This document shows positions 23,406-53,467 of a DNA stretch of 64,000 nt, one piece after another (the stretch's first letter is position 1; the number at the start of each line of letters is the position of its first letter). A model generated the notes under the pieces. The model saw only the letters and a program-made list of their open reading frames with translations. It ran no database searches and was not told the origin of the DNA. Both the position numbers and the translations under genes were made by a program. The stretch comes from Alphaproteobacteria bacterium (lineage in GTDB: Bacteria > Pseudomonadota > Alphaproteobacteria > SMXQ01), in assembly GCA_046297835.1 (NCBI GenBank), contig JBKBHI010000001.1:391354-455353 (forward strand), in the 5' to 3' direction.

Positions 23406-23428
23406 TGCTTCCGTGTGATTTTTTCCGT

Positions 23429-28251: not shown

Positions 28252-28390
28252 GGCAAGTTAGCCGCTATCCTCGATCGGCCAGCATAGGGTGCTCAGGACT
28301 ATGGGGTGTTAGATAGTCTTGAGCGTCTACACTGGCCGAGCAGCTACTGAGCGCTACAAAAAGTGCAGCACCAAATGATGCTCAATTGGT

Positions 28391-28645: not shown

Positions 28646-28918
28646 AAATTGACTCCCTGATTGATTGCATACCTTCAGGAGTCTATTTGCGCGCTGTAAC
28701 TACGGTATTTCCGGCTTGTTTCTCTTTGCAGCGAATTGTTTCCGGAAGATATCTATCTAGTTCGCAGTCGCGGCGTGTGGGACTGGATCGACTTGGTCAG
28801 AAGTTGGCAGCGGCCAATAACCTAGCGGAACTTATCGATTACCCAGGTCTTCGGTATGAGCCGTTTTTCAAGAGTGGCCTCTACGTATTGGTATGAGGCG
28901 CTTTACGCTTGGAGCGCA

Positions 28919-29502: not shown

Positions 29503-29639
29503 TCCGTCGATAACGGACTCGGCGCCTCGACGGAATGACTCAACAGGTCTGATCTATGTAAGCAGAAAGAATGCGATTAATGGTTCGGAACCCGCAGCCA
29601 CTTACCAAGTAATTGGCATTTGCATTCTTAAAGGATTGC

Positions 29640-30380
29640 TCAGAACCAGAAGCGAACGCCGGCGACTAGAGACAAGCTATCGACATCCTCCCCTTCAGAT
29701 CGGGCAAGGATCGCCGTCTCTCCCAACTTTCGCTCCCACGCGACACCAACATATGGCGCAAATTTTCTGCTGAACTCGTAGCGCAAGCGCAAGCCCAACT
29801 CGACATCGTTGATGCCGCCTCCCAGCCCAAGTTCGGGCACGTCCTGCGCTGCGAGGGTGATCTCAGCATTGGGCTGCAGAATTAGCCGCTGAGTGATCAG
29901 AAGGTCGTACTCAGCTTCAAATCGCGCTGTGAAATCGCCCTGTTCACTGACGAAGCCTTGGAGGTCGAGTTCGAAATACCCCGGAGCAAGGCCTTGCAGA
30001 CCGATCACGCCATAGGAGCGAGAGGGATCCGGCTCGAAGTCGTGGCGAACACCGACCTGTAAATCCCAATAGTAATCTATGAGGCGGGAATACAGGAGCT
30101 GAACCTCCGCGCTTTCGATGGCGTCGGATAAGCTGTACTCCCCCTTCGTCTTAAGCCAGACCTTGTGATAGTCGCCGCCGTACCAAGCATCGGCTTCCCA
30201 CGCGATGACGTCCTGCCCGTCTTGGGCACGGTACTCGAACTTATCGACGAGTACCGCCCCGACGAGCGGCTCGTGCATTTGAGACATGTTCGACATTGGC
30301 TGCGCATGGACTGCCGTCACCATAATGATCGACGCCAAGGTTGCAGCCGGAGCGACAAGCCAATTCTTCTTCCATTGCAT
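29640..30380 (-). CDS. copB: copper resistance outer-membrane protein CopB/PcoB
   Basis: Signal peptide. Beta-barrel family signature. Terminal aromatic motif (...GVRFWF). Confidence 0.8.
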   Translation of the reverse strand: MQWKKNWLVAPAATLASIIMVTAVHAQPMSNMSQMHEPLVGAVLVDKFEYRAQDGQDVIAWEADAWYGGDYHKVWLKTKGEYSLSDAIESAEVQLLYSRLIDYYWDLQVGVRHDFEPDPSRSYGVIGLQGLAPGYFELDLQGFVSEQGDFTARFEAEYDLLITQRLILQPNAEITLAAQDVPELGLGGGINDVELGLRLRYEFSRKFAPYVGVAWERKLGETAILARSEGEDVDSLSLVAGVRFWF

Positions 30381-30398
30381 GATTCTATCTCGACTTTC

Positions 30399-32264: not shown

Positions 32265-32285
32265 TGTTATCTCCTCAACATGATC

Positions 32286-32853
32286 TCAGCGACTGAAATT
32301 AACCTTGCCGACCATGCCCGCTTCATAATGTCCGGGAATATTGCAAGCGAACTCGAGCTCGACAGACTTACTGAACTTCCAAACGAGTTCTGCCGTTTTT
32401 CCAGGTTCGACGAGAACGCTGTTGGGGTCGTCGTGCTTCATCGACATTCCGCCCATCTGGGAATGATCCATATTCTTCATGTCGTGATTCATGCCCGTTG
32501 CGGTCATCATGCCGTGCTCAACCATCATGGCCATCTCCTTTTGATGTTCCATGTGCATCGCGACAGTACCGATGTTGAACTCATGAAGGAGCTGGCCGGC
32601 ATTGGTCAGCACGAAGCGAACCGTCTCTCCAGCCCGGACCTGCACACTTTCCGGCTCATAGGCGTTGTCGATCATTTTGATCCTGACAACGCGTGTCGTA
32701 CCGGTTGCCTTGCCTGCTTCGCCGATGGAATCGGCCGCATGGCTGTGGTCGTTAGCTCCAGCGGCGATAGCAAATGACGGCGGCAGAACCGTGGAAAGGC
32801 CAACCAGCGCGATCTGGAGGCCGCGAAGCGTCTTTGAAACCGATTTTGTCATT
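32286..32853 (-). CDS. cupredoxin-fold (blue-copper) periplasmic protein with a Met/His-rich loop (CopI-like)
   Basis: Type-1 copper ligand pattern (...HEF...C...H...M: FACNIPGHYEAGM). Met/His-rich stretch. First gene of the cupredoxin-pcoA-pcoB operon. Confidence 0.65.
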
Positions 32854-33049
32854 TCACAGTCCTTGGAATGGTGAGGAGTTTTTGGAATAGTGAGAGTTAT
32901 GGTGGCCAGACTCATGAGGGCTCGGCCAACGCAGGAGCGACCCATAACGCGGGGGGCGTCGGGGGCAAAGCAGACGTCTGCGCTGGCCGATGCAGTAAAT
33001 ATTCACTACCTGAGATTACGTGCGGTCTGTATCTCGGCAATCTCTATTG

Positions 33050-33066
33050 TGTAACAAAGTGTAACA
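33050..33066 (-). promoter_or_regulatory. direct repeat TGTAACA-N3-TGTAACA, putative CopR box upstream of the cupredoxin/pcoAB operon
   Basis: gTGTAACAaagTGTAACAgc has the same half-sites and spacing as the box at 26090. Confidence 0.5.
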
Positions 33067-33157
33067 GCGACGATGGATAAATCGCCCAAGGTCGCTGCGG
33101 TAGATATTGCATCAAGACCCTACGGAAATCCGTAGGCGCCAAGCCACGCAAATAACC

Positions 33158-33601
33158 CTACGAATGCGCTCCGCGGCATTTCCCATGATCGCCAAGCGTC
33201 TCAATGACGCGGCACTCGGCGATCGTGCCTTGATGGCAATCTGAGGTCATCCGCACCAACTCACGCTCCATGCCCTTCAGCAGAGCGATCTTCCTTCGCA
33301 CTTCGACCAAATGTCGGCGGGCAATGGCATCGGCTTCTGTACAGGGCGCATCATGACGACCGCTCATCGCCAGGAACTGCCGCACATCATCCTGCGAAAA
33401 GCCGAGATCGCGGGCGTGCCTTATAAAGCGCAGCGTCGTAGCGGCCGCTTCTGAATATCGACGCTGGTTACCGGCAGTCCGGGGGGCTTGGGGCAGCATC
33501 CCCATCTGCTCGAAGTAGCGGATTGTTTGGACCTTGCACCCTGTCTGCTGAGCCAACTCACCTATCGTTAAGTATTTGATATCACTTATATCAGTGGCCA
33601 T
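33158..33601 (-). CDS. MerR-family heavy-metal-responsive regulator (ZntR/CadR/PbrR-like)
   Basis: N-terminal MerR HTH (LTIGELAQQTGCKVQTIRYFEQMGML). Dimerisation helix. C-terminal Cys cluster (PCTE...SDCH...AECRVIETLGDHGKC). Confidence 0.8.
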   Translation of the reverse strand: MATDISDIKYLTIGELAQQTGCKVQTIRYFEQMGMLPQAPRTAGNQRRYSEAAATTLRFIRHARDLGFSQDDVRQFLAMSGRHDAPCTEADAIARRHLVEVRRKIALLKGMERELVRMTSDCHQGTIAECRVIETLGDHGKCRGAHS

Positions 33602-33611
33602 AAGATTCTCC

Positions 33612-33642
33612 TTGAAGCTCTAGTAACTGTAGCTCTTATGTT
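33612..33642 (+). promoter_or_regulatory. MerR-type promoter (TTGAAG, 19-bp spacer, TATGTT) between the divergent merR-like and ATPase genes
   Basis: The 19-bp spacer is read directly. It contains a direct AGCTCT...AGCTCT repeat rather than a perfect dyad. Confidence 0.45.
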
Positions 33643-33677
33643 GAGCTTTGCAATATTGGACTTTGGGAGAGCTCATC

Positions 33678-36125
33678 ATGTCGGTCGCCACCTTGGGTCA
33701 GCCGTTGCGGTTCAAAGTCGAGGGCATGGATTGCCCAAGCTGCGCGATCAAGATTGAGAACGCGCTGAAATGGCTTCCGGGAGCCGGACAGATAGCCGTC
33801 GATGTCGGCGCCGGCACTGTCGCCGTCACACCGGCCAGCGGAGATTTCGTCCCCGAGGACGCCGCCGAGACGATCCGCAAGCTTGGATACAAAGTCCTCG
33901 CAACCCCAGCGGCGCCGGAATCTCGCCAACCGGTTCGCTTCAGCGTCGAGGGCATGGATTGCCCAAGCTGTGCGATCAAAATCGAGAACGCCCTGAAAAG
34001 AAACCCCGGAGTCGGCTCGATAGCGGTCAATGTCGGCGCCGGCACCGTCGCGGTGACGCCGATCAGCGATGCGTTCGTGGCGGAAGACGCGGCGGAAACG
34101 ATTCGACGCCTCGGATTTAAAGCGCAAGCGAATGCGCATCATGCCAAGGCCTCGCAACACAGTCCCGATAAACACGACCACGCCGGCCATGGCCGTGCGG
34201 GCCATGACCACGCGGGCCACGACGATGGCAGCCCTGCCACCGCAATATCCAGCAGCTCATGGTGGCAAACCTCTAAAGGCCGGTTGGTTCTCGTCGCCGG
34301 CGCGCTGCTGGCTATCGCTTTCATCGCAGACCAGATAGCCCCGGCATTGGGGCCCTGGCCGTTCGTTGCCGCAACGTTGGTCTCGCTGGTGCCCGTGGCG
34401 CGCAGGGCTTTTTCGGCGGCGCGCTATGGCTCGGTCTTCACCATCGAGATGCTGATGACTATCGCCGCTATTGGGGCTCTCGCCATCAACGCGGCGGAGG
34501 AAGCCGCAGTCGTCGTGTTTCTATTCTGCGTCGGCGAGCTGCTCGAAGGCGTCGCCGCGATGCGCGCCCGCAAGAGCATCGCCGCTCTCGGCGATCTGAC
34601 GCCCAAGACGGCCATGATCGTCGACGGAACGACCCTCCGCGAAGTTCAAGCGGATACGCTGCAACCGGGACATGTCGTCATGGTGCGCCCCGGCGACCGC
34701 GTTCCGTCTGACGGCGAGATTCTGGAAGGCAGCTCCGACATCAACGAAGCGCCGATCACAGGCGAGTCGGTGCCTAAAGCCAAGGCGCCCGGAGACACGG
34801 TCTTCGCCGGTACGATCAATCAGACCGTCGCCATCAAGGTTAAAGTGACCAAAGCCGCCAATGACAACACCATTGCGAGGATTCTCCGCTTGGTGGAGGA
34901 GGCTCAAGAGTCGAAGGCCCCCGTCGAGCGGTTCATCGACCGTTTTGCGCGGTTGTACATGCCCTTCGTGGTCGGCATCGCCATTTTAGTCGCGATCGTG
35001 CCGCCGCTCGCTTTCGGACAGCCTTGGGGCGAATGGGTCTATCGCGCTCTCGCTCTGCTGCTGATCGCCTGTCCTTGCGCGCTTGTGATCTCGACGCCTG
35101 CCGCCATCGCTGCGGGCCTGGCAGTCGGGGCGCGGCGCGGCTTGCTGATCAAAGGCGGCGCCGTGTTGGAAGGGGTTGGCCGGCTGCGCACCATCGCGTT
35201 CGACAAGACAGGCACGCTGACCGAGGGAAAGCCGAAGGTCACGGATATCGTGAATATCAACGCCTCGCCCGAGGACGCGCTCCGTCTAGCCGCCGCGCTG
35301 GAGAAAGGTTCAAATCATCCCATCGCCAAGGCGATCCTCGCCCGCGCGGATCGCGACGGACAAAGCCACACGACGGCGCAGGACGTCGCATCTCTCGGCG
35401 GTCATGGCCTGACGGGCGTCGTGGAGGGCCGCGCGCTGTTCCTCGGCAATCCGCGCAGCGCGGCGCAGCGGTCCGGCTTCGACGATCACGTGGCCGCCGA
35501 GACCTCCCGCTTGGAAAGCGAAGGGAAGACGGTCGCGGTTTTGATCGAGGGCAACTCCACTCTTGCCCTCATCGCGCTGCGCGACGAACCTCGTAAAGAC
35601 GCCAAACGCGGCTTGGCTGCTCTATCCGCGCTCGGCGTTAAAGGCGTGATGCTGACGGGCGACAACGCGCGCGCGGCGGCGGCCATCGCCCGCGATCTTG
35701 GCGTGGAACCACGGGCCGAACTGCTGCCTGAGGACAAGGCCCGCATCGTCAATGAACTGAAAGCTGCGGGCTATGGTCCGGTCGGCAAAGTCGGCGACGG
35801 CATCAACGATGCGCCCGCGCTGGCGGCGGCCGACGTCGGCATCGCGATGGGCGGCGGAACCGATGTCGCCCTGGAAACGGCGGACGCCGCGCTGTTGAAC
35901 AATCGCGTCATGGGCGTCGCCGAGTTGGTGAAGCTATCGCGGGCGACTCTGTCCAATGTTCACGTCAACGTGGCTTTGGCTATTGGCTCGAAAGCGATAT
36001 TTCTCGTGACGACCGTTCTAGGCTTGACGGGCATGTGGGTCGCCATCATGGCCGATACCGGCGCGACAGTGCTCGTCACCCTCAATGCGCTGCGCTTGCT
36101 CGCCTTCCGATTCGACAAAACCTGA
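33678..36125 (+). CDS. P1B-2-type (Zn/Cd/Pb) heavy-metal ATPase with two tandem HMA domains and a His-rich linker
   Basis: GMDCPSCAIKIENALK occurs twice (ZntA-like metal site). His-rich HDHAGHGRAGHDHAGHDD. CPC motif (IACPCALVISTP). DKTGTLT, GDGINDAP. A TTG at 33648 is an alternative start. Confidence 0.85.
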   Translation: MSVATLGQPLRFKVEGMDCPSCAIKIENALKWLPGAGQIAVDVGAGTVAVTPASGDFVPEDAAETIRKLGYKVLATPAAPESRQPVRFSVEGMDCPSCAIKIENALKRNPGVGSIAVNVGAGTVAVTPISDAFVAEDAAETIRRLGFKAQANAHHAKASQHSPDKHDHAGHGRAGHDHAGHDDGSPATAISSSSWWQTSKGRLVLVAGALLAIAFIADQIAPALGPWPFVAATLVSLVPVARRAFSAARYGSVFTIEMLMTIAAIGALAINAAEEAAVVVFLFCVGELLEGVAAMRARKSIAALGDLTPKTAMIVDGTTLREVQADTLQPGHVVMVRPGDRVPSDGEILEGSSDINEAPITGESVPKAKAPGDTVFAGTINQTVAIKVKVTKAANDNTIARILRLVEEAQESKAPVERFIDRFARLYMPFVVGIAILVAIVPPLAFGQPWGEWVYRALALLLIACPCALVISTPAAIAAGLAVGARRGLLIKGGAVLEGVGRLRTIAFDKTGTLTEGKPKVTDIVNINASPEDALRLAAALEKGSNHPIAKAILARADRDGQSHTTAQDVASLGGHGLTGVVEGRALFLGNPRSAAQRSGFDDHVAAETSRLESEGKTVAVLIEGNSTLALIALRDEPRKDAKRGLAALSALGVKGVMLTGDNARAAAAIARDLGVEPRAELLPEDKARIVNELKAAGYGPVGKVGDGINDAPALAAADVGIAMGGGTDVALETADAALLNNRVMGVAELVKLSRATLSNVHVNVALAIGSKAIFLVTTVLGLTGMWVAIMADTGATVLVTLNALRLLAFRFDKT
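33699..34120 (+). repeat. intragenic tandem duplication (about 219-bp period) encoding the two HMA domains
   Basis: The two copies are highly similar at the nucleotide level across about 200 bp (ggcatggattgcccaagctg[c/t]gcgatcaa[g/a]at[t/c]gagaacgc...). Confidence 0.7.
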
Positions 36126-40265: not shown

Positions 40266-40751
40266 ATGCAACGCGATATTTCAAAAATAGCCTTAGATAT
40301 TGGCTCTCTGAACGGCTGCTCCCTTGCCCAATTACAGGCGCAATGGACGACCCTTGCGAGTAAGCCCTTAAAGGGGGCTCGGCGTGACTTATTGCAGCGC
40401 GCCATTGCTTACCTTTTGCAAGACCAGGAAGGCGGCGGCCTCTCAGCAAAAACGCGCCAGCGCTTAGGTCAGTTGGCTAAAACTTATGCCAAGGATCGTA
40501 GCGCCCAGGCCCAGATGGCGCCCGATCTCAAACCGGGCTGCCGGCTCCTCCGCGAATGGCAAGGCGTCATGCACGAGGTCGTCGTGCTGGAACAGGGCTT
40601 TCAGCACGATGACCGCACCTACCGCAGCCTCTCGGAAATCGCGCGCACGATCACCGGCACGCGCTGGTCGGGCCCACTGTTCTTTGGTTTGAAGAAGCCT
40701 GCTGGCACGGCGCAGCCATCGCACGCCGGTAAGATCAAGGCAGAGCGATGA
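40266..40751 (+). CDS. DUF2924-family protein (recombinase-associated)
   Basis: 161 aa directly upstream of a large serine recombinase, overlapping it by 4 bp. This pairing is typical. AAGGAGG ribosome-binding site. Confidence 0.55.
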   Translation: MQRDISKIALDIGSLNGCSLAQLQAQWTTLASKPLKGARRDLLQRAIAYLLQDQEGGGLSAKTRQRLGQLAKTYAKDRSAQAQMAPDLKPGCRLLREWQGVMHEVVVLEQGFQHDDRTYRSLSEIARTITGTRWSGPLFFGLKKPAGTAQPSHAGKIKAER

Positions 40752-42451
40752 GCGCGCCTAAAGTTCTGCGCTGCGCCATCTACACGCGCAAATCGTCGGA
40801 GGAGGGGCTTGAGCAAGAATTCAACTCTCTCGACGCCCAGCGCGAGGCCTGTGAGGCTTATGTCCTGAGCCAGCGTCATGAAGGCTGGCAGGCGCTCGAG
40901 ACGTTGTACGATGACGGCGGCTATTCCGGCGGCAATATGGAGCGTCCCGGGCTGGTGCAACTGCTTGCCGATGTCCGGGCGCGCAAAGTCGATGTCATCG
41001 TTGTCTATAAGGTCGACCGGCTCACGCGCGCCTTGTCGGACTTCGCCAAGATCGTCGAGACGCTGGACGGGCATGGCGTTTCCTTCGTCTCGGTGACGCA
41101 ACAATTCAACACCACCAGCTCGATGGGGCGGTTGACGCTCAACGTGCTGCTGTCCTTTGCCCAATTCGAGCGCGAGGTCACAGGCGAGCGCATTCGCGAT
41201 AAAATTGCCGCTTCGCGCAAGAAAGGCATGTGGATGGGTGGTCCGGTGCCGCTCGGCTACGACCTGGTCGATCATAAGCTGGTGATCAACGAGCCCGAGG
41301 CGACGACGGTGCGGCAGATCTTCGAACGCTACGCTGAACTGGGCTGTGTCCGCAAACTCAAGGCCGCACTCGACGAGGCCCAGATCGTGAGCAAGCGACG
41401 CGTAACCGCGGGCGGCCGGGCGTCGGGTGGCCAAGCCTTCGGTCGCGGCCAGCTCTATCATCTGCTGCGCAACCGGCTCTATCTCGGCGAGGCGGTGCAT
41501 AAGGGAACATCCTACCCAGGGCAGCATGACGCGATCATCGCGCCACGGCTATTCGAGGAAGTGCAGGCGACGCTGGCCGCCAATCGCGTCGCGCGTCGTG
41601 ATCGCCAGGGTGCCGCGTCGCCGAGCCTGCTCGCTGGCTTGCTCTTCGACACGGACGGCCAGCGCTTCACGCCGAGCCACACCCAGCGCCATGGCCGGCG
41701 CTATCGTTACTATGCCGCAGCTCAGCCGGCGGACGAGGGCGCCTCACAGGCCGGCCGGCTGCAGCGGTTGCCGGCGGCGCAGATCGAGGCCATCGTCGAG
41801 GGCGAGCTGAGCCGCTTGCTGGCGACGCCGTCCGAGCTTCTGAGTTATCTGCCCGGCGCGCCCGCGGTCCTGACCCACGCGGTTCTCAGCGGTGGGGCCG
41901 CTGCGGCGATACGCTGGTCGGCGGCCGCGGCACCCGCGCGGGGGACACTGCTGCGCGCTGTGCTACGCCGGGTGACGGTAAGCGCCACGCAGCTGCGCCT
42001 GACCGTCGACTTGCCGGCGCTGTGGCGGATACTGCTGCCTCTAGAGCAAGCCGAGGCCGCCAGCGCCTTGGCGCCGGCGACGCTCGAGATCGAACGGCCG
42101 GTGACTCTCAAGCGCAGCGGTCGTGAGACCCGGCTCTGGGTCCCTGGCGCCAACGCGCCACGGCAAGTGGCCAAGCCCAATCCGGCGTTGATCAAGCTGG
42201 TGGTCCGCGCTCATGACTGGTGGGGGCAGTTTCGGGCGGGGCGCTCGACGCAGGCGATTGCCAACGCGCTCGGCCTCAACCGCAGCTATATCGCGGCAGT
42301 GATGCCGCTCGCCTTCTTGGCGCCAGATCTGGTTGAGGACATCCTGGCCGGCTGTCAACCGCCGGGCTTACAGACCAAAGACCTGATGGACCTGCCATTA
42401 GAATGGGCGGCGCAGCGCGCGCTCCTCGCGGCGCGCGCTGAAGGTATCTGA
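40748..42451 (+). CDS. large serine recombinase
   Basis: Resolvase catalytic domain (AIYTRKSSEEG...DAQRE...VIVVYKVDRLTR). Recombinase domain. Long C-terminal coiled-coil/Zn region. 567 aa. Confidence 0.85.
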   Translation: MSAPKVLRCAIYTRKSSEEGLEQEFNSLDAQREACEAYVLSQRHEGWQALETLYDDGGYSGGNMERPGLVQLLADVRARKVDVIVVYKVDRLTRALSDFAKIVETLDGHGVSFVSVTQQFNTTSSMGRLTLNVLLSFAQFEREVTGERIRDKIAASRKKGMWMGGPVPLGYDLVDHKLVINEPEATTVRQIFERYAELGCVRKLKAALDEAQIVSKRRVTAGGRASGGQAFGRGQLYHLLRNRLYLGEAVHKGTSYPGQHDAIIAPRLFEEVQATLAANRVARRDRQGAASPSLLAGLLFDTDGQRFTPSHTQRHGRRYRYYAAAQPADEGASQAGRLQRLPAAQIEAIVEGELSRLLATPSELLSYLPGAPAVLTHAVLSGGAAAAIRWSAAAAPARGTLLRAVLRRVTVSATQLRLTVDLPALWRILLPLEQAEAASALAPATLEIERPVTLKRSGRETRLWVPGANAPRQVAKPNPALIKLVVRAHDWWGQFRAGRSTQAIANALGLNRSYIAAVMPLAFLAPDLVEDILAGCQPPGLQTKDLMDLPLEWAAQRALLAARAEGI

Positions 42452-43558: not shown

Positions 43559-44734
43559 TTAGTTTTGCTGCATCTCAAATAAGGTACGCAAAGTACCGCG
43601 CTCAATTAGGCGTGAGAATTTTTTGTAATTTTGATGATCTCGTTGCCAGCGGCCTGCGACTATCGCGATGTTTACTCGGGCCTGAATCGATAATGAAGTT
43701 ACGTCGTCCTGACTCATGTCGTGAGCCCAATGAAATTGAGAAAGGATGTCGCTCGGAATAAGCGACTCTTGTGCCAAGAGATCGGCTTCACGCTCATAGG
43801 CATCATCACTATTGATTTCAATATCATCAATAAATGCTGAGCCAGACTCTCTCAGATAATCGTAATGCAGCGAGATGTGCGCCAGCTCGTGCAGAAGTGT
43901 AAACCAGAAGTTATCGAGGCGATCGTGTCGCAATGTGAGTCCTACGACCGGCCGACTTGCCGCGTCGACCATTGCAGCGCCATCGAGAAATGTTCCGGGA
44001 AGTGGCGGCAGTATCACGACACAAATCCCAAGTTTAGCTAGATGAGTAATCACGCGAGTAGGCCCATCAGTTCTGGCGCTAATCCTTGCTACAGACCGTA
44101 ATTCGGATGATCCGAATTTAGACTGTTCAAAAGTATTCTTAAGGCGCTGGTTCTCGCTTTTTCTGACTACTGCAGCTTGCCAAAGCAAAAGAGCATGCTG
44201 GTCTGTTTTTGACGCAGCACGTTGCGTTCTGGTTTTGCGAAGTAACGCGGGAGAAAGGTTTGTTTGAGCAACCGGGCTTAAAAAAGCATCTAGCTCTTTA
44301 GGCCCAACTTTAAAGCCCATAGAACTTAAGCGATTAAGTGCGGGAGTAGACTCGCTTTCAAAACTCTTATCAGCTCTGCTCGAGATAAGAGATTCGTAAG
44401 GTATGCCGAGGCCCTGATGTAGTGAGCGGATCATATCAATTGATAGTTGTCGCTTACCTGAAAGCACCTCGGACACGCGTGCGCGTGAACCTATAAACGG
44501 CTCTAACTGCTTCGGTGAAAGGCCGAGAGCATCCATGCGAAATTTTATCGCTGCGATAGGGGATGGGGATTCAATGTGAAAATATTTTTTTTCATATTGC
44601 TCGATGAGAGTCGCAAGGACCTCGATCTCATCATCGTAATTAAGATTGTTGCTGGCTTGCAGCAGATCCTTGATGCGACTCTTCGCGTCTTTCAGATCAA
44701 TTTCGGTGCGAATGGGTTTGATCATCGGATTCAT
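43559..44734 (-). CDS. HigA-like HTH antitoxin fused to an ImmA/IrrE-family metallopeptidase domain
   Basis: XRE HTH (LGLSPKQLEPFIGSRARVSEVLSGKRQLSIDMIRSL). HEXXH motif (LLHELAHISLH). Start overlaps the higB stop (ATGA). Confidence 0.75.
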   Translation of the reverse strand: MNPMIKPIRTEIDLKDAKSRIKDLLQASNNLNYDDEIEVLATLIEQYEKKYFHIESPSPIAAIKFRMDALGLSPKQLEPFIGSRARVSEVLSGKRQLSIDMIRSLHQGLGIPYESLISSRADKSFESESTPALNRLSSMGFKVGPKELDAFLSPVAQTNLSPALLRKTRTQRAASKTDQHALLLWQAAVVRKSENQRLKNTFEQSKFGSSELRSVARISARTDGPTRVITHLAKLGICVVILPPLPGTFLDGAAMVDAASRPVVGLTLRHDRLDNFWFTLLHELAHISLHYDYLRESGSAFIDDIEINSDDAYEREADLLAQESLIPSDILSQFHWAHDMSQDDVTSLSIQARVNIAIVAGRWQRDHQNYKKFSRLIERGTLRTLFEMQQN

Positions 44735-45021
44735 TCCTCAGCAACTAATGAGACCGTGAGGTCTGCTACTCGAATTTCGGTCAACAGCACTATCCCTCGG
44801 CGGAAATCCATGAGGGTTTCGACGTCGATGGCCGGGTTTGGAAACGAGAACACCACGATCGGTGGGGAGCGTACGTCGGCGTATTTGAAGTCCCTAAGAA
44901 GGGCATGCGTTGATTCCCAGGTGCGGCAACGCATCTCTGCCGCCCACGCCCGCAGCATTTCTCCAGTCCTTGGGTGACTTCGAATGAAGCCATGTAGCTC
45001 CATTTCACCTAAGAAATTCAT
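44731..45021 (-). CDS. higB: HigB-family (RelE-fold) toxin
   Basis: 96 aa located upstream of the HTH antitoxin (toxin-first order). The pattern ...HPRTGEMLRAW...FKYADV... resembles the HigB toxin family. Confidence 0.6.
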   Translation of the reverse strand: MNFLGEMELHGFIRSHPRTGEMLRAWAAEMRCRTWESTHALLRDFKYADVRSPPIVVFSFPNPAIDVETLMDFRRGIVLLTEIRVADLTVSLVAEE

Positions 45022-45035
45022 CCGCTTATCCTAAT

Positions 45036-45052
45036 GCTCCCATGTCGGGAGC
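45036..45052. promoter_or_regulatory. operator-like perfect palindrome GCTCCC-ATGTC-GGGAGC (copy 1)
   Basis: Read directly. Lies 14 nt upstream of the higB start codon, just before its AGGA ribosome-binding site. Confidence 0.6.
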
Positions 45053-45085
45053 TATTTTATAGACGAGTGATCCACGCTTGTATAT

Positions 45086-45102
45086 GCTCCCAATACGGGA
45101 GC
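45086..45102. promoter_or_regulatory. operator-like perfect palindrome GCTCCC-AATAC-GGGAGC (copy 2)
   Basis: Read directly. Lies inside the spacer of a putative plus-strand promoter (TTGTAT...TTTAAT) that would read into the downstream 3-gene operon. Confidence 0.6.
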
Positions 45103-45125
45103 ACTTTAATCCAGTGAGGTGGTTC

Positions 45126-45590
45126 GTGACGCGTTTCACCGTTTTTGGAAAGAGCCTGGATGCAAACGAGCAGCAGGCTTTAAGGAAATTCGCCGAGCAA
45201 GCAGCGGGCAAAGGGGATGAGGTTAGTTTTGCCGCGTCCATTGGCGAGCCCGATCCCTCTGTCGATAGCGAAGTCGTTCTGGTTTTGGGAACGGCAAGTA
45301 CGTGTGCTAGCGCCGATCTCGCCAATGATTTGCAGCTGGCTGCAAATGGTGCCCGGCGCATCATCTGGGTTTGGCCGGAGGGCGTAGGCGAATGCGAGCT
45401 GCCTTCAGTCGTCAGGACTTACGCCTATTCGATCATCGTTTGGAATGTGGGGAAGTTAAAGTCGGTCGCAGCCGACGATGATGCGAGGTGCTTTGAAGCA
45501 TCGACGGGGGAGGCCCTGCCTAAAGTCGAAACTGAACGAAATCTCTGTGCCGATGTTGAGGCCGAAAACCCCAAGGCTAAAACAAAGTGA
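45126..45590 (+). CDS. hypothetical protein, possible Rossmann-like (SLOG/TIR-like?) nucleotide-binding fold
   Basis: GTG start with a GAGGTGG ribosome-binding site; the annotated TTG at 45078 or ATG at 45084 would lie inside the operator. VVLVLGTAS...ADLANDLQLAANGARRIIWVWPEG is reminiscent of SLOG/LOG-type folds. Low certainty. Confidence 0.4.
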   Translation: MTRFTVFGKSLDANEQQALRKFAEQAAGKGDEVSFAASIGEPDPSVDSEVVLVLGTASTCASADLANDLQLAANGARRIIWVWPEGVGECELPSVVRTYAYSIIVWNVGKLKSVAADDDARCFEASTGEALPKVETERNLCADVEAENPKAKTK

Positions 45591-46219
45591 ATTTATTCTC
45601 TTACGTCGTAGAGCACGATCTTGGGTTCGCTCCGAATCCATTTCACGGATTTTGCACGCTTGCTTGTTGCAAGCCGGAGATCCGTAAAAAAGCGAAAGAG
45701 GGTGACTACATAATTGGCACCGGTGCAACAAGGCCGGGGCTTCTCGGGCACATCACCTATTGGATGCGTGTGGATGAGATTCTGACCTTCGATGAATATT
45801 GGAGTGACCGCCGCTTCCGTTACAAGAAGCCCTACATGGAAGGCACTACCATGTTGCGCTACGGCGACAACATTTATCACCGAAGCGGCGGTAAAGATTT
45901 TCAGCAAGAGGATTCATTCCACAGCCATGAGGATGGCAGCCTTTCTCGTGGTGATTTAAAGCGAGATACCCAAAAGACGGAGAGGGTTCTTATAGGGCGT
46001 GACTTTTCGTATTGGGGGCGTAACGGAATACTGTTGCCGGAACACCTGCAGTGCCTTGTGAAAAAAGGACCTGGGCATAAGTGTCGATTCACTGAAGAGC
46101 AGATAGCTATGTTTCATGCTTGGTTGAGCAATCAGCGTGAACGTGGCTTTAAGGGGGAGCCGGCTCATTGGCAATTTATTGGACAGCTCAAGCGCCGGCC
46201 TTCCCGGGCTCGGAGGTGA
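45587..46219 (+). CDS. Nmad2-like (nucleotide-modification-associated domain 2) protein
   Basis: The N-terminus MNLFSYVVEHDLGFAPNPFHGFCTLACCKPEIRK matches, from memory, the conserved start of the Nmad2 family. The start overlaps the upstream stop (ATGA). Confidence 0.5.
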   Translation: MNLFSYVVEHDLGFAPNPFHGFCTLACCKPEIRKKAKEGDYIIGTGATRPGLLGHITYWMRVDEILTFDEYWSDRRFRYKKPYMEGTTMLRYGDNIYHRSGGKDFQQEDSFHSHEDGSLSRGDLKRDTQKTERVLIGRDFSYWGRNGILLPEHLQCLVKKGPGHKCRFTEEQIAMFHAWLSNQRERGFKGEPAHWQFIGQLKRRPSRARR

Positions 46220-46222
46220 TAG

Positions 46223-47881
46223 ATGAGGCCTATCGACTACGACCAATTCGTTCGCAAAACCGATCAATATTCTTTGAAGGCCCCCAAGGAGCGTCATGCA
46301 ATTGCTTTGTATGGGCTTGTGGGCGAGATCGGCTCTTTAATCTCGGCCATAAAAAAGAAAATATTGGCCGAGGGTGGTGAGGCTGATTGGGATCAACCAA
46401 ATAAAGAGATCAAAGAAGAGATAGGGGATGTGCTTTGGTACTGCTACTCGCTTTCTCAAATCGTCAATGCGACATATTTTGATATTCTAACGAACGATAT
46501 TTCAGTCCTAAGACGCGAGATCGAGGGAGGCAACGAACGGGCTGAGAAAATTAGTGCGGCGCTCGCGGCGCTTGATCCAAAAAGTAAGAACGAATTTCTT
46601 TCAGCCGCGGCGCTCTTTCCTATTTCAAATGACTTTTCATTTGATGCTTACCAAGCGCTTGCATTCAAAACTGCAAGAACGGACGGAATAATCCTTCTCG
46701 AGGTTTGCTTGGCTGTCTTGCCGCAATTAGGTGCGGAGCTTTTGCGCTCGACACTTCCCGAAGTGGAGTTGACCCTTAATAAAAATATTGCCGACCGTGC
46801 GCCCAACGTTGTTTTGGGTGAGGTGGCTTGGCATCTATCTGCAATCTCAAGCCTCTATAATTTATCGCTAAATGACGTTGTCGATTTTAATTGTCAGAAA
46901 GTAAGTTTCAGATCGGAGAGGGGGAATCCTGCCTCTCTTCATGATGAGGGACGAAAGGAGCAAGAGCAGTTTCCTCGAAAATTTAGCATCACGTTTGTCG
47001 GTATTGAGAAGGGCCTATCAAGGATGTACTTCGAAGGCCATCGACTGGGAAATGACCTAACAGATAATGCGAAAGAGGATGATGGTTATCGTTTTCATGA
47101 CGTGCTTCACCTGTCGCTCATTGGGCATCTAGGCTGGTCGCCAGTTTTTAGAGGTTTTATGAAGAAGAGGCGTCCCGACGTTGATGAGGTCGAGGATGGT
47201 GGCCGGGCTAAAGTGGTTGAGGAATTGGTTATCAAGGCCATTCACTCTGAAGGAGTGAGTCAGGCGAGGGAATCAGGCAGATGCTCTGTTGGCACTCCGA
47301 TGCGTTTGTTTCCTGAGAAAAGCACCATTCCCTTCAGGCTTTTGAAAACCATAGATTTATGGGTTGAAGATCTCGAGGTCCGCCAGAACAGATTCTGGGA
47401 ATGGGAGGATGCAATTCATGAAGGTTGCGAGATTTTCTTTAAGCTGTGTGAGCATGGCCAAGGCACTGTGCACGTAGATTTAAAAAATCGCAGTCTGACT
47501 TTTGAGTCTTTGGTAACGCCTGGCGTTCAGGGGTTAACTGTTGGGCTTGGCATGGGAGTAGGTGATGCCAGCGCAGGAGGCATACTTACTGAGGTGGATA
47601 AGACTTTCGCAGAAGGGCTGTCTGGTCTCGCTCAGGTGGTAGCAGCAAAGCGAGCGCTATTCGAAGCACTGGGATTGTCGAACCCGCCGGTCTCAATGTG
47701 GTTGCAGGTTGATATTCGCGTGGTCGACGGAAATAAAATATCTGTGAGTGCCAGGGGCGACGTGCAGGAGCGCATATGGAGCATGCAAGTCGTCGACTAC
47801 AAAGCTGCTTTCGTCAATATGACTGATAACGTGTTGTGCACTATCGCTGCGATTGCAGATGTTGAAGATCTAAGAAAATGA
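46223..47881 (+). CDS. fusion protein: N-terminal MazG-like all-alpha NTP pyrophosphohydrolase domain plus about 440-aa uncharacterised region
   Basis: HAIALYGLVGEIGSL...EIKEEIGDVLWYCYSL fits the MazG/HisE EExxE/D signature. The remainder has no recognisable motif. Begins 3 bp after the previous stop. Confidence 0.55.
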   Translation: MRPIDYDQFVRKTDQYSLKAPKERHAIALYGLVGEIGSLISAIKKKILAEGGEADWDQPNKEIKEEIGDVLWYCYSLSQIVNATYFDILTNDISVLRREIEGGNERAEKISAALAALDPKSKNEFLSAAALFPISNDFSFDAYQALAFKTARTDGIILLEVCLAVLPQLGAELLRSTLPEVELTLNKNIADRAPNVVLGEVAWHLSAISSLYNLSLNDVVDFNCQKVSFRSERGNPASLHDEGRKEQEQFPRKFSITFVGIEKGLSRMYFEGHRLGNDLTDNAKEDDGYRFHDVLHLSLIGHLGWSPVFRGFMKKRRPDVDEVEDGGRAKVVEELVIKAIHSEGVSQARESGRCSVGTPMRLFPEKSTIPFRLLKTIDLWVEDLEVRQNRFWEWEDAIHEGCEIFFKLCEHGQGTVHVDLKNRSLTFESLVTPGVQGLTVGLGMGVGDASAGGILTEVDKTFAEGLSGLAQVVAAKRALFEALGLSNPPVSMWLQVDIRVVDGNKISVSARGDVQERIWSMQVVDYKAAFVNMTDNVLCTIAAIADVEDLRK

Positions 47882-48964
47882 ATCGGCAATCCGTCGATTG
47901 ATTTTCCATTTCGGTGGATACCATGGAGCAAGCAAAGAGCCAGCACTCGTATATTTCTGTTTAATTCGAGTGCGGCCGGCTATCCCTCCATATTCTGGAA
48001 AAGCGACGCGTGCATACTTAGAGATTTCGCAAAAAATATTCTGGCAGTCGATCAGCTTGAGGGCGCGTCCCCATAGCGATTTGAAATTAATTTCTAGATT
48101 AGAAAAATGATACTCTTGATTGTCCCGCATGTAGCGAATTACGTCGGCGGGATCGAGCTTTGCGTCGCTTTGAAAGCATTTTGAGATGCCGTCAAGAGCT
48201 CCGGGGCCGGCCATTACAAAGTCATCCTCGCTGAAATTTGTGAGGGTGCTGTAATTTAAATCAGTCGCGAATTGGTAAGCTAAAAATGGCCCAATCGAAG
48301 GTGCCGATAGGAGCAGTTTAAAAGCATCTGACATGCTTCGGCACTCGGACAGGCGAATTGAGAAACCATCTTTGATTAGCTGCTCAAGCATGCGCAGGTG
48401 GTTTTGATGCTTTAGCGGGTGGCCAAAAACATTCCCTGCGGATGGCATGATGTAAGCGGCGGAATATATCCGTTCACCCTTGGCCATATGCCGCGACAAA
48501 ACTTTATCGAAAAGATCGTAGTTAAAAGTTTCCCAAGTGAGCTTTCCGAATTCCGCTTCTAGAAGCTTCCAAGTTTCGATTTTGTTAAACAACTTGAAGA
48601 GGAGAATTCGAAAAAATAGATCGTTTCTCGAGTCCGGTAAATCGTCTCTGTAAATGACATCTCGAATAAGAAACTGGCTTACGCGATCGGATGCCCGATA
48701 CGTATTCGTAAACTTAAAGCTTTTTAGAATGGGGTCGTTGGTTAGTGCGGTGTTTGTCCGGTCTAAGCGACGGAAGAAAATATTCTGACGTTCTGCAGCA
48801 AACCGCCAATACGCATAAAACACGGGAGTAGTAAGAACTTTTTGTCCCGCAATCGTTATGGCTTCAGATGCGGGGCTGCTCACCTTGTTGCTGAAATCGA
48901 CATCGAGCTGAAGTGAATCAGCACTCGTTGATTTTTGCGAGGCATTGGTAGATTTGTATTTCAT
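47870..48964 (-). CDS. hypothetical 364-aa protein (candidate DNA-base-modification enzyme?)
   Basis: Convergent with the MazG-fusion gene and overlapping it by 12 bp. No confident family assignment. The idea of an aGPT-pyrophosphorylase / hypermodification-type protein is suggested only by neighbourhood. Confidence 0.45.
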   Translation of the reverse strand: MKYKSTNASQKSTSADSLQLDVDFSNKVSSPASEAITIAGQKVLTTPVFYAYWRFAAERQNIFFRRLDRTNTALTNDPILKSFKFTNTYRASDRVSQFLIRDVIYRDDLPDSRNDLFFRILLFKLFNKIETWKLLEAEFGKLTWETFNYDLFDKVLSRHMAKGERIYSAAYIMPSAGNVFGHPLKHQNHLRMLEQLIKDGFSIRLSECRSMSDAFKLLLSAPSIGPFLAYQFATDLNYSTLTNFSEDDFVMAGPGALDGISKCFQSDAKLDPADVIRYMRDNQEYHFSNLEINFKSLWGRALKLIDCQNIFCEISKYARVAFPEYGGIAGRTRIKQKYTSAGSLLAPWYPPKWKINRRIADSFS

Positions 48965-48981: not shown

Positions 48982-48995
48982 TTTTTTTGGGGGGG
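48982..48995. repeat. T7G7 homopolymer pair next to a near-palindrome TTTGCAGTGCAAA
   Basis: Read directly in the upstream region of the 364-aa gene, at the boundary with the umuC remnant. Confidence 0.8.
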
Positions 48996-49075: not shown

Positions 49076-49590
49076 GTGACGCGCTCGTTCGGTCGGGCTG
49101 TGACTATGCTCGACGAAATGCGGGAGGCCGTTAGCTTCTATGCGACGCGCGCAGGGGAGAAGCTACGTCGCGCAAATCAGGCGGCCGGCTATCTCAGCAT
49201 GTTCATGCACACGAATCGGTTCAACGGCGATCCTAGCCGCAGCGCTTCGGCCGTCGTTCGCTTCCCTGAGCCGACCAACGACACCGGCGAGCTAGTGGCG
49301 GGCGCCCTACGCGTTGTTGAGTCGATTTGGCGCGACGGCTTCCGATCTCAAAAGCGGGCGTGATTACCACGGACCTTGTGCCGGCCGGCGAAGGGCAAGC
49401 TTCGCTGTTCATGGAGAAGCGCCGCGATCTGCGACTCATGATCGCTATAGATAAGCTCATTGCCAAGATGGGGCGAGGGACAGTCATTACCGCCGTAACC
49501 GGCATTCGGCGCGGGTGGTTCTTAAAGGCCGCGCATCATTCGCCCCCGTTCATACGGGCGGGCGCTCGTCGCGTCGAGACGAAAAGCGCG
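49076..49590 (+). pseudogene. umuC: 5'-truncated, frameshifted remnant of Y-family polymerase gene umuC
   Basis: Two frames carry the UmuC C-terminal ('little finger') region: ...MLDEMREAVSFYATRAGEKLR...PTNDTGELV... and ...AGVITTDLVPAGEGQASLFMEKRRDLRLMIAIDKLIAKMGRGTV... The catalytic N-terminal roughly two-thirds is absent. Frames switch near 49340. Confidence 0.6.
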
Positions 49591-49593
49591 GGA

Positions 49594-50901
49594 CTAAGCG
49601 AGCAGAGCTTCCTCGTCGCGCATATCGGTGAACTTACGGCCGGTCTCAGCGTGTACGGCATCCAGGCCCATCGCAATCAGCCTTTCGATGATGACGTCGC
49701 AATAGGCAGGGTCGAGCTCAATGCCGTAGCCGGCACGTCCGGTCTTTTCCGCGGCGACCAACGTCGTTCCGCTGCCGCAGAAAGGGTCGAGCACGATGCC
49801 GCCGCGGTTCGAGCAATCCAAGATAGCGTCAGCGACCAGAGAGACCGGCTTCACAGTCGGGTGCGAAGCGAGGTCCTTCATCCTGTCCTTGCCGAAGCTG
49901 TTGGCGCCCGCATAGGTCCAGACATTCGTCCGGTTGCGCCCGTGCTTGCCGAGCTCTACGTTATTGATGTGGGCGGCCGTGCCGTTCTTGAAGACGAACA
50001 CGCATTCGTGCTGCGAACGGTAGAGGGATCCCATCCCGCCGTTCGTCTTCACCCAGACGCACATGTTCTTCACTTCGCTATAAGCGCTTCCGGCGATCAC
50101 CATCTCGCCAAGGTGCCGCCAGTCGATGCAAATGTAGTGGATCGAACCATCCGTGCTGTGCTCAACCAGCAAGTTAAAGACGGTAGACAAGAAGCTCGTG
50201 AACTCAGGCGATGTCATTTCCCCGGACGCCATCGCAAACTCTCGGTGCTGAGTTTGGCCCAAGCCGGAAACGTGCCCCTGGATCGGGACGTTGTAAGGAG
50301 GGTCAGTGAAGACCAGGTCCGCCTTCGCGCCGGCCAGAAGCCGCTCGTAGCTTTCCGGCTTGGTGGCATCGCCGCAAAACAGCTTGTGCGGGCCGATGAG
50401 CCAAAGGTCACCCGGATTCGTGATCGCCGAGCTATCGAGCTTAACCGCGGGAATCTGCTCTCCGAGATTGTTCGAGGCATTCTGCTCGTTGATCAGAACA
50501 TCAATGTCGGCAGCATCGAAGCCCGTGACGGTCAAGTCGAGATCGGGGGCGATCTCTTCGAGTTCGATGAACTCCAAGGCCAACAGCTCACGGTCCCAAC
50601 CCGCTTGCTCAGCAAGGCGGTTATCCGCGATGACGTAAGCCCGGATTTCGGCCTCCGAGAGATCTTCGCGTCTGAGGATGGGGATCAGCGGCATGTTCAA
50701 GAGCTTGGCTGCTTCGACACGGCCGTGGCCGGCTATGATGACGTTCGTGCCGTCGACTAGGACGGGCACAGTGAAGCCGAAGCGCTTGATGCTATCGGCA
50801 ATCTGCTGAATCTGCTTCTTCGAGTGTGTTCGCGGGTTGCGCTTGCGGGGATGCAGATCTCCCGGGGAGCAATAGGAAATGCTCAGCAGCGACATTGTCA
50901 C
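49594..50901 (-). CDS. ParB-like nuclease domain fused to an N6/N4 DNA methyltransferase
   Basis: N-terminal ParB/Srx-like domain (RKRNPRTHS...IIAGHGRVEAA). Methyltransferase domain with DPPY (FTDPPYN) and SAM-binding FCGSGTT. Confidence 0.8.
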   Translation of the reverse strand: MTMSLLSISYCSPGDLHPRKRNPRTHSKKQIQQIADSIKRFGFTVPVLVDGTNVIIAGHGRVEAAKLLNMPLIPILRREDLSEAEIRAYVIADNRLAEQAGWDRELLALEFIELEEIAPDLDLTVTGFDAADIDVLINEQNASNNLGEQIPAVKLDSSAITNPGDLWLIGPHKLFCGDATKPESYERLLAGAKADLVFTDPPYNVPIQGHVSGLGQTQHREFAMASGEMTSPEFTSFLSTVFNLLVEHSTDGSIHYICIDWRHLGEMVIAGSAYSEVKNMCVWVKTNGGMGSLYRSQHECVFVFKNGTAAHINNVELGKHGRNRTNVWTYAGANSFGKDRMKDLASHPTVKPVSLVADAILDCSNRGGIVLDPFCGSGTTLVAAEKTGRAGYGIELDPAYCDVIIERLIAMGLDAVHAETGRKFTDMRDEEALLA

Positions 50902-51003
50902 CTCCAGTCTGAGTGAAACTCAGCGGAGGGTAGTGGGGTGCCTACCTATGATCTTTCCGAACAAACACGCGATTTAAAATGAAGGGTGAAAAGTCGGTGT
51001 TTC

Positions 51004-52908: not shown

Positions 52909-53393
52909 CTTCTTCCTCGTCTATGGTTGAGTTGAAGAAGACGTTTTGCTTGTTTATGGAGGGCGAAGCCTTCCGAACAAACTATCGATTTAAAATGAGG
53001 ACTAGGCTGGAAGAGGAAGGCTTGGTTTTCCGCGCGACGACCATTTCAGCGCGAGGATTGCTCTTGATCCGCGCCTGATATGCACGTGATACTCACGTGT
53101 TATGGTTTTGCATCAAACCCTATATAACCTATTGAAATGGCGACAATATCGGCGCTGTAAGATGAAGTGATCGCCCTAAAATGCTTCGCACCAGGAAATG
53201 GCGGTTCAATCTCGAATTTAAAGATGTCGAGTGCGGGAATGCTCAGCAGAGAATCCAACCCCGCAAGGCGCTAAATATGCCTCTGAACCTCTGGGATTAA
53301 ACCTCCGGAGAAGGTCGATACCCCGCTAAGCGTCGGAATTGTCGGCTCGTTTCGCGAGCCATCCGGAGAGATAAGTTTTTGAAAGAAGAGATT

Positions 53394-53467
53394 GGCTGGG
53401 GGACTAGGATTCGAACCTAGACTAGCGGAGTCAGAGTCCGCGGTCCTACCGTTAGACGATCCCCCAG
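53394..53467 (-). tRNA. tRNA-Gln (anticodon CUG)
   Basis: Manual fold of the reverse complement gives acceptor TGGGGGA/TCCCCCA, a D-arm, an anticodon stem GCGGA/TCCGC with loop CTCTGAC (anticodon CTG), a T-arm CTAGG-TTCGAAT-CCTAG, discriminator G and an encoded CCA. Length 74 nt. Confidence 0.85.

Follow-up and report, generated by a model that had tools for sequence, protein, structure and literature searches.

Within a 64,000-nucleotide stretch of an Alphaproteobacteria metagenome-assembled genome (lineage SMXQ01, assembly GCA_046297835.1, contig JBKBHI010000001.1, forward-strand positions 391,354 to 455,353; referred to here as the window) lies a block of six genes: a cassette of four open reading frames (ORF1 to ORF4) encoding a TIR-like protein, an Nmad2 protein, a tandem-MazG/MazG_C protein and an HMUDK_hel protein, and a divergent pair encoding a HigB-like protein and an Xre-M78 protein. 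We consider it somewhat probable that this locus is a mobile unit of the DS-4 kind, a candidate anti-phage system drawn from the enzyme families of phage pyrimidine (thymidine) hypermodification. Its placement in the class of inducible defences that act on pyrimidine nucleotides or DNA bases is well supported, and its mechanism is what we infer below. An earlier reading made from the letters alone (the sequence-only reading) had pointed to a system acting on nucleotides or DNA bases, and this stands, the cassette being operon-like, co-inherited and widely conserved, with a probable role in defence or conflict. Nmad2, MazG_C and HMUDK_hel recur together in hundreds of bacterial species, and the related system DS-4 lowers phage plating in the first of the nine parts of the table that reports it.

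Conservation and mobility of the six-gene block

Relatives were collected by an alignment-based profile search with one genome per species, a query with ORF3 alone having given nothing, and MazG_C relatives were found in 266 species. Eighty loci of these relatives, to which the locus counts given here refer, were analysed by iterated hidden Markov model (HMM) searches of all their ORFs; they span Alpha-, Beta- and Gammaproteobacteria, Nitrospira, Bacteroidota, Planctomycetota, Chloroflexi and Actinobacteria. HMUDK_hel is present in 72 of the 80 and Nmad2 in 52; every locus with Nmad2 also has a TIR gene, as a rule directly upstream of it, and the order of the cassette genes differs between phyla. 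The neighbourhood comparison proposed by the sequence-only reading bears it out: the gene set recurs in dozens of genomes of different phyla. Natural fusions link all four parts of the cassette, HMUDK_hel-MazG-MazG_C in a Polyangium metagenome-assembled genome (L048), Nmad2-MazG-MazG_C (P0364), TIR-Nmad2 (P0398 and P0495) and also HMUDK_hel-TIR-Nmad2. That the four genes are chance neighbours or housekeeping genes is ruled out by the conservation and the fusions.

In this clade the cassette travels with the HigB-like/Xre-M78 pair and two palindromes, giving the six-gene block, a tie that the sequence-only reading overlooked. The Xre-M78 gene (43559..44734, minus strand) encodes a fusion of an Xre helix-turn-helix (HTH) domain with an M78 (ImmA/IrrE) peptidase, matching PADLOC PD-Lambda-2_B over its full length (9.9e-115) and further matching PADLOC capP (3.4e-08), Pfam Peptidase_M78 (3.8e-09) and HTH_3 (1.6e-04). 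It overlaps by 4 bp the gene of the small HigB-like protein (44731..45021, minus strand), which matches PADLOC PD-Lambda-2_A (1.3e-10) and, weakly, Pfam HigB_toxin (0.043). Two operator-like palindromes, GCTCCCatgtcGGGAGC (45036..45052) and tGCTCCCaatacGGGAGCa (45085..45103, directly upstream of the ORF1 ribosome-binding site), stand on either side of a promoter-like stretch in the divergent intergenic region of about 100 bp; their pattern, GCTCCCA-N(3-5)-GGGAGC, occurs twice in the window (0.35 expected), both times here. The pair is divergent to the cassette, in the same layout, in 12 loci (this one included) that share MazG identities of 51-61% and have mostly unrelated flanks, and in 10 of 11 related loci (L003-L016, L011 excluded) both the place and the sequence of the palindromes are conserved. 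More widely, HTH and/or M78 genes adjoin the system in 37 of the 80 loci. The Xre-M78 protein is probably the repressor or switch of the six-gene block.

The block appears to be horizontally mobile, sporadic and cellular, on the basis of a serine recombinase, a tRNA-Gln gene and the near-absence of MazG_C from viral contigs. It is contained in an island of about 13 kb, with a DUF2924 protein and a large serine recombinase (40266-42451) at the left end and tRNA-Gln(CTG) (53393-53466) at the right; a search for att-like direct repeats around the island at 40-53.4 kb gave nothing convincing. MazG_C was found in 3 of 2.9 million viral contigs, all of them of the second type of locus described below. 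The AT-rich character noted at the outset is confirmed, GC content being 45-52% over 44-49 kb against about 57-71% in most of the remaining window, in which other lower-GC stretches also exist.

The second type of locus, type B, carries a gene for a thymidylate-synthase-like protein in place of TIR-Nmad2; it was found by unbiased clustering in 23 of the 28 loci that lack Nmad2, and it is because of this replacement that a nucleotide-pathway logic is attributed to the system. The type B protein, a distant relative of thymidylate synthase of about 270 amino acids (aa), has no Pfam match and conserved GFPCL and YRS motifs. Its profile matches PDB thymidylate synthase and cytidine monophosphate (CMP) hydroxymethylase at an E value of about 0.01, and hhalign relates it to the DS-4 protein DS-4A with 81% probability (E 1.2e-05). 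Its gene is often start/stop-overlapped with that of MazG, and type B usually has separate Xre and M78 genes. The swap between TIR-Nmad2 and the thymidylate-synthase-like protein in relatives suggests which step those modules serve, and the gene set of the relatives resembles a T4-type route: a deoxynucleoside triphosphatase (dNTPase), then a hydroxymethylase, then a kinase.

The four proteins of the cassette

The profile search that had been proposed as a check returned Pfam matches to Nmad2, MazG, MazG_C and HMUDK_hel and none for ORF1. NCBIfam has no match for any of the four cassette proteins, and PHROGs gave a generic MazG family and, for ORF4, an unnamed family, with nothing further.

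ORF2 (45587..46219, plus strand; 210 aa, reading MNLFSYVV... from a GTG start) is the Nmad2 protein that had been recognised from its first residues, with a match to Pfam Nmad2 (PF18753) of 1.8e-66 (224 bits, cut-off 26.1) that spans profile positions 3-197 of 200. It carries the invariant Cys23/27/28, His and Asp, and it is 48% identical to the Nmad2 of DS-4 (E 2e-47). A PDB sequence search with Nmad2 gave no match; the predicted model suggests a PUA-like fold (ASCH/EVE/YTH), as in readers of modified bases, and would resemble among these the restriction modules that depend on 5-methylcytosine or 5-hydroxymethylcytosine (5mC/5hmC). Further contexts for the Nmad2 family are shown by three relatives (P0468, P0416, P0448) with fusions to Nmad3, NOV_C (NO VEIN C-terminal) and possibly a Macro domain.

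The product of the first gene had been taken for a small Rossmann/SLOG-like protein; the Rossmann guess was close, and the identity is that of a TIR-like domain of the ThsB/MTH538 type. ORF1 (45126..45590, plus strand; 154 aa) matches the PADLOC ThsB TIR model (3e-10) and, by BLASTP, the DS-4D TIR (26% identity, E 1e-05), and its best PDB match is the TIR-like MTH538 (E 0.004). Profile A5, made from its proteobacterial relatives, matches a canonical ThsB_TIR homologue across the full domain (hhalign 98.1%, E 1.2e-13), and that homologue itself matches Pfam ThsB_TIR at 9.5e-24. An alignment of 55 TIR proteins encoded directly upstream of Nmad2 separates into two clades, both of which retain a C-terminal R-x-x-C motif. 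In TIRs of Bacteroidota, Dehalococcoidia, Planctomycetota and E. coli DS-4 the FISH... and WVNWEIE motifs are intact, catalytic Glu included. In the proteobacterial clade, to which ORF1 belongs, the N-terminus is degenerate, about 18 residues are missing internally, and the catalytic Glu column is occupied by D, E, S, A or I. ORF1 has Asp in this column; it reads LANDLQLA at the canonical WVNWEIE and lacks the glutamate of W-x-x-E. These alignments mark ORF1 as a diverged member of the ThsB/MTH538-type TIR-like proteins in which another residue has taken the place of the catalytic Glu. Such a TIR is a natural experiment: given that the partner has lost its catalytic residue, NADase activity is argued to be dispensable in this clade.

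ORF3 (46223..47881, plus strand; 552 aa, from ATG 46223 with GGAGG upstream) does have the MazG-type head assigned to it, matching Pfam MazG (PF03819) at 6e-08 (33.3 bits, cut-off 22), and the remaining body of about 440 aa, previously left without a family, consists of a second MazG repeat, Pfam MazG_C (PF18722) and a weak tail resembling holo-acyl carrier protein synthase (ACPS). The N-terminal MazG module (aa 1-95; 46223..46507, plus strand) keeps its acidic residues, E35, E62, E66 and D69 being invariant and E65 nearly so among 36 homologues; its PDB matches are the MazG-like 2q73 and DCTPP1, and it is probably an active nucleoside triphosphate (NTP) pyrophosphohydrolase. The second module (aa about 136-235; 46628..46927, plus strand) is degenerate, with GE changed to PQ and EELGD to VVLGE and the acidic residues lost (alignment A6). 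It is homologous to the sole MazG domain of short relatives of about 295 aa, which consist of a single MazG domain and MazG_C, so that ORF3 has an additional N-terminal module and the degenerate one is, by this alignment, ancestral. MazG_C itself (aa 238-429; 46934..47509, plus strand; 2.4e-53, 181 bits, cut-off 29.7) shows the invariant motifs DDGYRFHDxxH, GWSPV and EDGxRA, and a profile search of the PDB found no relative of it. The C-terminal tail (aa about 462-548; 47606..47866, plus strand) has a weak likeness to half of a holo-ACP synthase (4'-phosphopantetheinyl transferase) domain: Pfam gives no match, the profile matches PDB AcpS weakly (E about 0.01), the comparison with a neighbouring ACPS gene of locus L015 is marginal (hhalign probability 50%, E 1.7e-04), and Arg stands in place of the catalytic Glu in the AAKEA motif.

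The convergent gene, ORF4 (47870..48964, minus strand; 364 aa), had been described as a protein of unknown family, which must be corrected: it belongs to Pfam HMUDK_hel (PF18723; 5e-105) and is a paralogue of the phage aGPT-Pplase type. The Pfam name derives from phage SP10 gp186, in which the helical domain is fused to a P-loop 5-hydroxymethyl-deoxyuridine (5-hmdU) DNA kinase; in ORF4 a sequence and Pfam scan shows neither a P-loop kinase domain nor a Walker A motif. The HMM match is joined by a DNA-glycosylase-like helical fold in the predicted structure and a conserved Cys-Glu pair, features that define HMUDK_hel/aGPT-Pplase proteins. The AlphaFold model (pLDDT 86.8) has a predicted helix-hairpin-helix DNA-glycosylase fold, closest to QNG1 and the phage transferase PUGT. 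A PDB sequence search with ORF4 gave noise only, and comparison with PUGT (PaMx11 gp46) gave no significant sequence match. With PaMx11 gp50, the second aGPT-Pplase-type paralogue, which is encoded beside that phage's kinase and hydroxymethylase, the profile comparison reaches 98.2% (E 4e-14), and the Cys312-Glu313 pair, invariant in ORF4 and its relatives, is also present there. Homologues of ORF4 occur in 453 phage records (tblastn), chiefly of ViI-like, M6/PaMx-like, Vibrio and Microbacterium phages, and the best of them, LuckyBarnes gp38, adjoins thymidylate synthase and two glycosyltransferases. With the HMUDK_hel of DS-4 (WP_087900470.1), ORF4 shares 26% identity over 333 aa (BLASTP, E 5e-27).

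Relation to named systems, proposed mechanism and alternatives

The cassette had been thought undescribed. It is instead a variant of a type of system already known from computation, if barely tested, with a validated relative, DS-4, and similar systems with MazG, MazG-C, NMAD and aGPT-Pplase domains already predicted (PMC13092281). DS-4 of E. coli (DefensePredictor; DeWeirdt, Mahoney, Laub, Science 2026) consists of a thymidylate synthase, a deoxynucleoside monophosphate (dNMP) kinase, HMUDK_hel, a TIR and Nmad2, and is listed as validated and replicated (PMC13092281). The same source reports unvalidated predicted systems with MazG, MazG-C, NMAD, dUTPase and aGPT-Pplase domains, and cites Burroughs et al. 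2015 for earlier predictions (PMC13092281). HMUDK_hel, the ThsB-like TIR and Nmad2 of DS-4 are homologous to those of the cassette, the TIR and Nmad2 genes overlap in both, and the DS-4 order HMUDK_hel-TIR-Nmad2 reappears in Bacteroidota relatives of the cassette. The DS-4 TIR keeps its catalytic Glu, however, whereas that of the window does not, and the window block has the PD-lambda-2 A/B-like pair in addition; DS-4 was tested against phage, whereas the window cassette is known here from its sequence. A phmmer search with DS-4A and DS-4B found no match in the two contigs identical to this locus (L001 and L002) or in any of the 80 related loci and, given that synthase and kinase were not found, the cassette is a sibling of DS-4 and not a member. 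Deoxynucleoside triphosphate (dNTP)-depletion defences (dCTP deaminase, dGTPase) and house-cleaning MazG enzymes offer a further comparison: ORF3 shares with the latter a MazG module with acidic metal-binding residues, and action on the nucleotide pool is a plausible common logic, but the depletion enzymes are not homologous to ORF3, whose MazG is part of a four-part protein, always with MazG_C and usually with HMUDK_hel. The cassette belongs neither to Thoeris nor to the phage hypermodification pathway, nor does it make up a complete PD-lambda-2.

The reading of the block as a DS-4-like defence allows the following course to be envisaged. In the uninfected cell, the Xre-HTH/M78 protein would bind both palindromes and hold both divergent operons low, tempered by its HigB-like partner as B is by A in PD-lambda-2, and infection or DNA damage would lift this repression in the manner of CapH/CapP- or ImmR/ImmA-type switches. 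The intact N-terminal MazG module would convert a (deoxy)nucleoside triphosphate to the monophosphate, and MazG_C would perform a second step on the nucleotide, possibly phosphotransfer. The ASCH/EVE/YTH-like pocket of Nmad2 would accommodate a base that is modified or flipped and, given the loss of the catalytic Glu, the ORF1 TIR would probably be a scaffold and partner of Nmad2 rather than an NADase. HMUDK_hel would flip a pyrimidine from DNA, or bind a nucleotide as QNG1 does, and would then attack the base via Cys312/Glu313, as PUGT does via Cys247. The net effect would be that the supply of pyrimidine nucleotides is diverted or poisoned, or that replicating phage DNA is chemically marked or damaged. 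Taken in full, this would be a new type of inducible immunity that turns phage-style pyrimidine hypermodification chemistry on the phage, in which a PD-lambda-2-like protease/antitoxin switch releases three activities, a tandem-MazG/MazG_C processor, a PUA-like Nmad2 base reader and a Cys-dependent base-flipping HMUDK_hel, to give a toxic nucleotide or covalently marked or trapped replicating phage DNA; in so specific a form it is put forward tentatively and is rather unlikely to hold in every part. If true, it would give the HMUDK_hel, Nmad2 and MazG_C families their first function, and a mechanism based on poisoned nucleotides or marked DNA would establish a new principle of defence and supply new DNA-base-modifying enzymes. 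The locus is a compact natural unit whose six genes include the likely regulator and are accompanied by the likely operators, and candidate residues for mutagenesis are MazG E62/E66/D69, HMUDK_hel C312/E313 and Nmad2 C23/C27/C28.

Several points weigh against this defence reading. The window cassette has no obvious killing effector; the thymidylate synthase and dNMP kinase of DS-4 are absent from the window, where the tandem-MazG/MazG_C protein is found instead; and three of the four cassette proteins are without a model in PADLOC 2023. We infer the control of both operons by the Xre-M78 protein through the palindromes from position and conservation alone. The literature yielded no measured activity for Nmad2, MazG_C or HMUDK_hel, and the term 'predicted nucleotide kinase' for MazG_C (PMC13092281) is itself a prediction. 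The paralogue of PaMx11 gp50/M6 gp55 type is dispensable for the in vitro hypermodification reaction. As to DS-4, it has one row in the first of nine parts of Table S7, for lambda, with a reduction in plating of about 0.9 log and small plaques, which barely informs on mechanism (PMC13092281).

Among the alternatives, the mobile island might modify a pyrimidine of its own or the host's DNA, for example in evasion of restriction after transfer, with no anti-phage action; this would be a new bacterial DNA modification. The homologues of HMUDK_hel in phage thymidine-hypermodification clusters (the 453 phage records, PaMx11 gp50, LuckyBarnes gp38) are consistent with such a role, as are the lack of a nuclease or other effector and the orphan ParB-DNA methyltransferase that adjoins the cassette. 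The 2013 analysis of Iyer and Aravind, which defined the HMUDK_hel, Nmad2 and MazG_C families by sequence, reportedly framed them as DNA-modification systems. Phage thymidine hypermodification proceeds by 5-HMUDK and an aGPT-Pplase/amino-acid:DNA transferase (Lee et al. 2018, 2022; PaMx11 gp46/PUGT, structure 8z2m). Among the window ORFs scanned there is no P-loop 5-hmdU DNA kinase, and at the window locus there is no ORF resembling a deoxyuridine monophosphate (dUMP) hydroxymethylase or thymidylate synthase and no match of ORF4 to the clade-2 transferase PaMx11 gp46. The pyridoxal phosphate (PLP) or radical S-adenosylmethionine (radical-SAM) partners of that pathway are likewise absent from the window, which is a bacterial island and no phage. 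A form without base-hydroxymethylating enzyme, kinase and clade-2 transferase argues against self-modification, as do the lowered phage plating of DS-4 in the first part of Table S7, the near-absence of MazG_C from viral contigs, and the frequent Xre/M78 and TIR/SLOG partners, which are typical of inducible immunity and unlike constitutive modification, and this alternative is unlikely. A defence directed at phages with modified DNA, which recognises and destroys their non-canonical nucleotides, is improbable to a greater degree: MazG would clear 5-hydroxymethyl-dUTP/-dCTP, Nmad2 would serve as the reader of the modified base, and in phage DNA 5-hydroxymethyluracil or 5-hydroxymethylcytosine (hmU/hmC) would be excised or trapped by HMUDK_hel. 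Enzymes of the MazG family, such as that of Mycobacterium tuberculosis (Mtb MazG) and DCTPP1, the latter a PDB match of ORF3, reportedly clear non-canonical dNTPs, the predicted fold of Nmad2 matches modified-base readers including 5mC/5hmC-dependent restriction modules, and the predicted DNA-glycosylase fold of HMUDK_hel would make it kin to enzymes that act on 5-substituted uracil. The thymidylate-synthase-like enzyme of type B and DS-4, however, would make rather than remove C5-modified nucleotides, and the DS-4 row in the first part of Table S7 is for lambda, whose DNA is canonical.

The two remaining alternatives concern the TIR and the upstream pair. Signalling akin to Thoeris, in which infection would prompt the TIR to make an NAD-derived signal, with the other proteins as effectors or as processors of that signal, is very improbable. 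ORF1 does match the PADLOC ThsB model and lies in the ThsB/MTH538 TIR-like family, and Bacteroidota operons carry extra TIRs and a SLOG cluster-2/STALD protein; but the catalytic Glu column is unconserved in the proteobacterial clade, ORF1 has Asp there and a degenerate N-terminal motif, its partner is always Nmad2, about a quarter of the related systems have no TIR at all, and the window ORFs scanned contain no ThsA, SLOG or SIR2 match. Thoeris itself, as a reading of the locus, is ruled out by the missing catalytic Glu and the failure to find ThsA. It is also doubtful that the HigB-like/Xre-M78 pair is an independent toxin-antitoxin module, an incomplete PD-lambda-2, which stands beside the cassette and is not its regulator. 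In E. coli PD-lambda-2, B is toxic, A neutralises B and the third gene, C, is required for defence (Vassallo et al. 2022, PMC9519451), so that A and B form a self-contained toxic/neutralising pair, and the clustering of defence genes is common. A and B are matched in the window, but PD-Lambda-2_C has no match among the island ORFs scanned, and in the related loci B is not followed by a conserved third gene. Moreover, the pair here faces the nucleotide cassette divergently across conserved palindromes that bracket the shared promoter region, this layout is kept in 12 loci with mostly unrelated flanks, and split Xre and M78 genes also accompany the distant type B systems.

Gene boundaries, related loci and surroundings

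The layout of the cassette largely agrees with the sequence-only reading. The longest possible reading of ORF1 is 45078-45590, from TTG 45078, and its likeliest start is GTG 45126, because homologue alignments, the GAGG at 45116-45119 just before it and the public gene calls on L001 and L002, which also begin there, agree. Overlap of the first two genes had been claimed with the sequence ATGA; the overlap is real, but ORF2 begins with GTG and the overlap at 45587-45590 is therefore GTGA. The 3-bp gap before ORF3 is as claimed (TGA at 46217-46219, then tag, then ATG 46223), and so is the convergence of the 364-aa gene on the operon, the ends of ORF3 and ORF4 overlapping by 12 bp. Position 45022, the left edge of the region first singled out, is the first base past the minus-strand HigB-like gene, and no gene starts there. 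Homopolymer tracts were said to flank the block, and one is obvious: a T7G7 tract (48982..48995) lies in the upstream region of ORF4, between the gene and its presumed promoter, where slipped-strand variation could affect ORF4 expression; the left flank has the two palindromes instead. A promoter and terminator scan of 44.9-49.2 kb gave no more sites than in shuffled sequence.

Other related loci show further gene contents. Type B loci (including L015, L019, L020, L030, L042, L066 and L073, and the viral L086-L088) carry a 107-aa unknown protein, an Xre HTH protein, an M78 peptidase, the thymidylate-synthase-like protein, HMUDK_hel and MazG-MazG_C, and seven of them have a standalone ACPS-family gene (PF01648, 2.6e-17). 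A seven-gene operon of Bacteroidota, represented by L047 (7995-13735, Crocinitomix catalasitica) and 15 similar loci, encodes MazG-MazG_C, a TIR, a 400-aa protein with a C-terminal TIR, a SLOG cluster-2/STALD protein, HMUDK_hel, a ThsB-TIR and Nmad2, which suggests a TIR-SLOG signalling layer absent from the window clade; SLOG cluster-2 proteins are restricted to relatives of the Bacteroidota type. In L051/L053 (8781-9764, minus strand) and eight further loci, mostly of Dehalococcoidia, a conserved protein of about 310 aa is encoded between MazG-MazG_C and HMUDK_hel; it has a sub-threshold dCTP-deaminase/dUTPase-like match (0.0039) and may be the 'dUTPase' of the predicted systems in PMC13092281.

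Beside the cassette, the gene at 49594-50901 (minus strand) encodes a ParB-N domain fused to an N6/N4 DNA methyltransferase, for which no restriction partner was found among the nearby ORFs scanned. A 477-aa ORF antisense to it (49327-50760, plus strand) is most likely a shadow ORF of GC-rich DNA, and a short ORF next to it (49076-49363, plus strand), annotated IMS_C on the identical contig, is probably what is left of a Y-family polymerase gene. The copies of a 28-nt direct repeat, TTCCGAACAAAC..CGATTTAAAATGA, at 50955-50982 and 52971-52998 are 89% identical; one is found upstream of the gene for the methyltransferase, the other upstream of a DUF5681 gene, and the repeat may be a shared regulatory site. 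Apart from the cassette island, another lower-GC stretch holds a copper/heavy-metal resistance island (17858-36125) with genes for CusB/HlyD-type and AcrB/CusA-type efflux, two heavy-metal P-type ATPases, a response regulator and histidine kinase, CopB and a multicopper oxidase.

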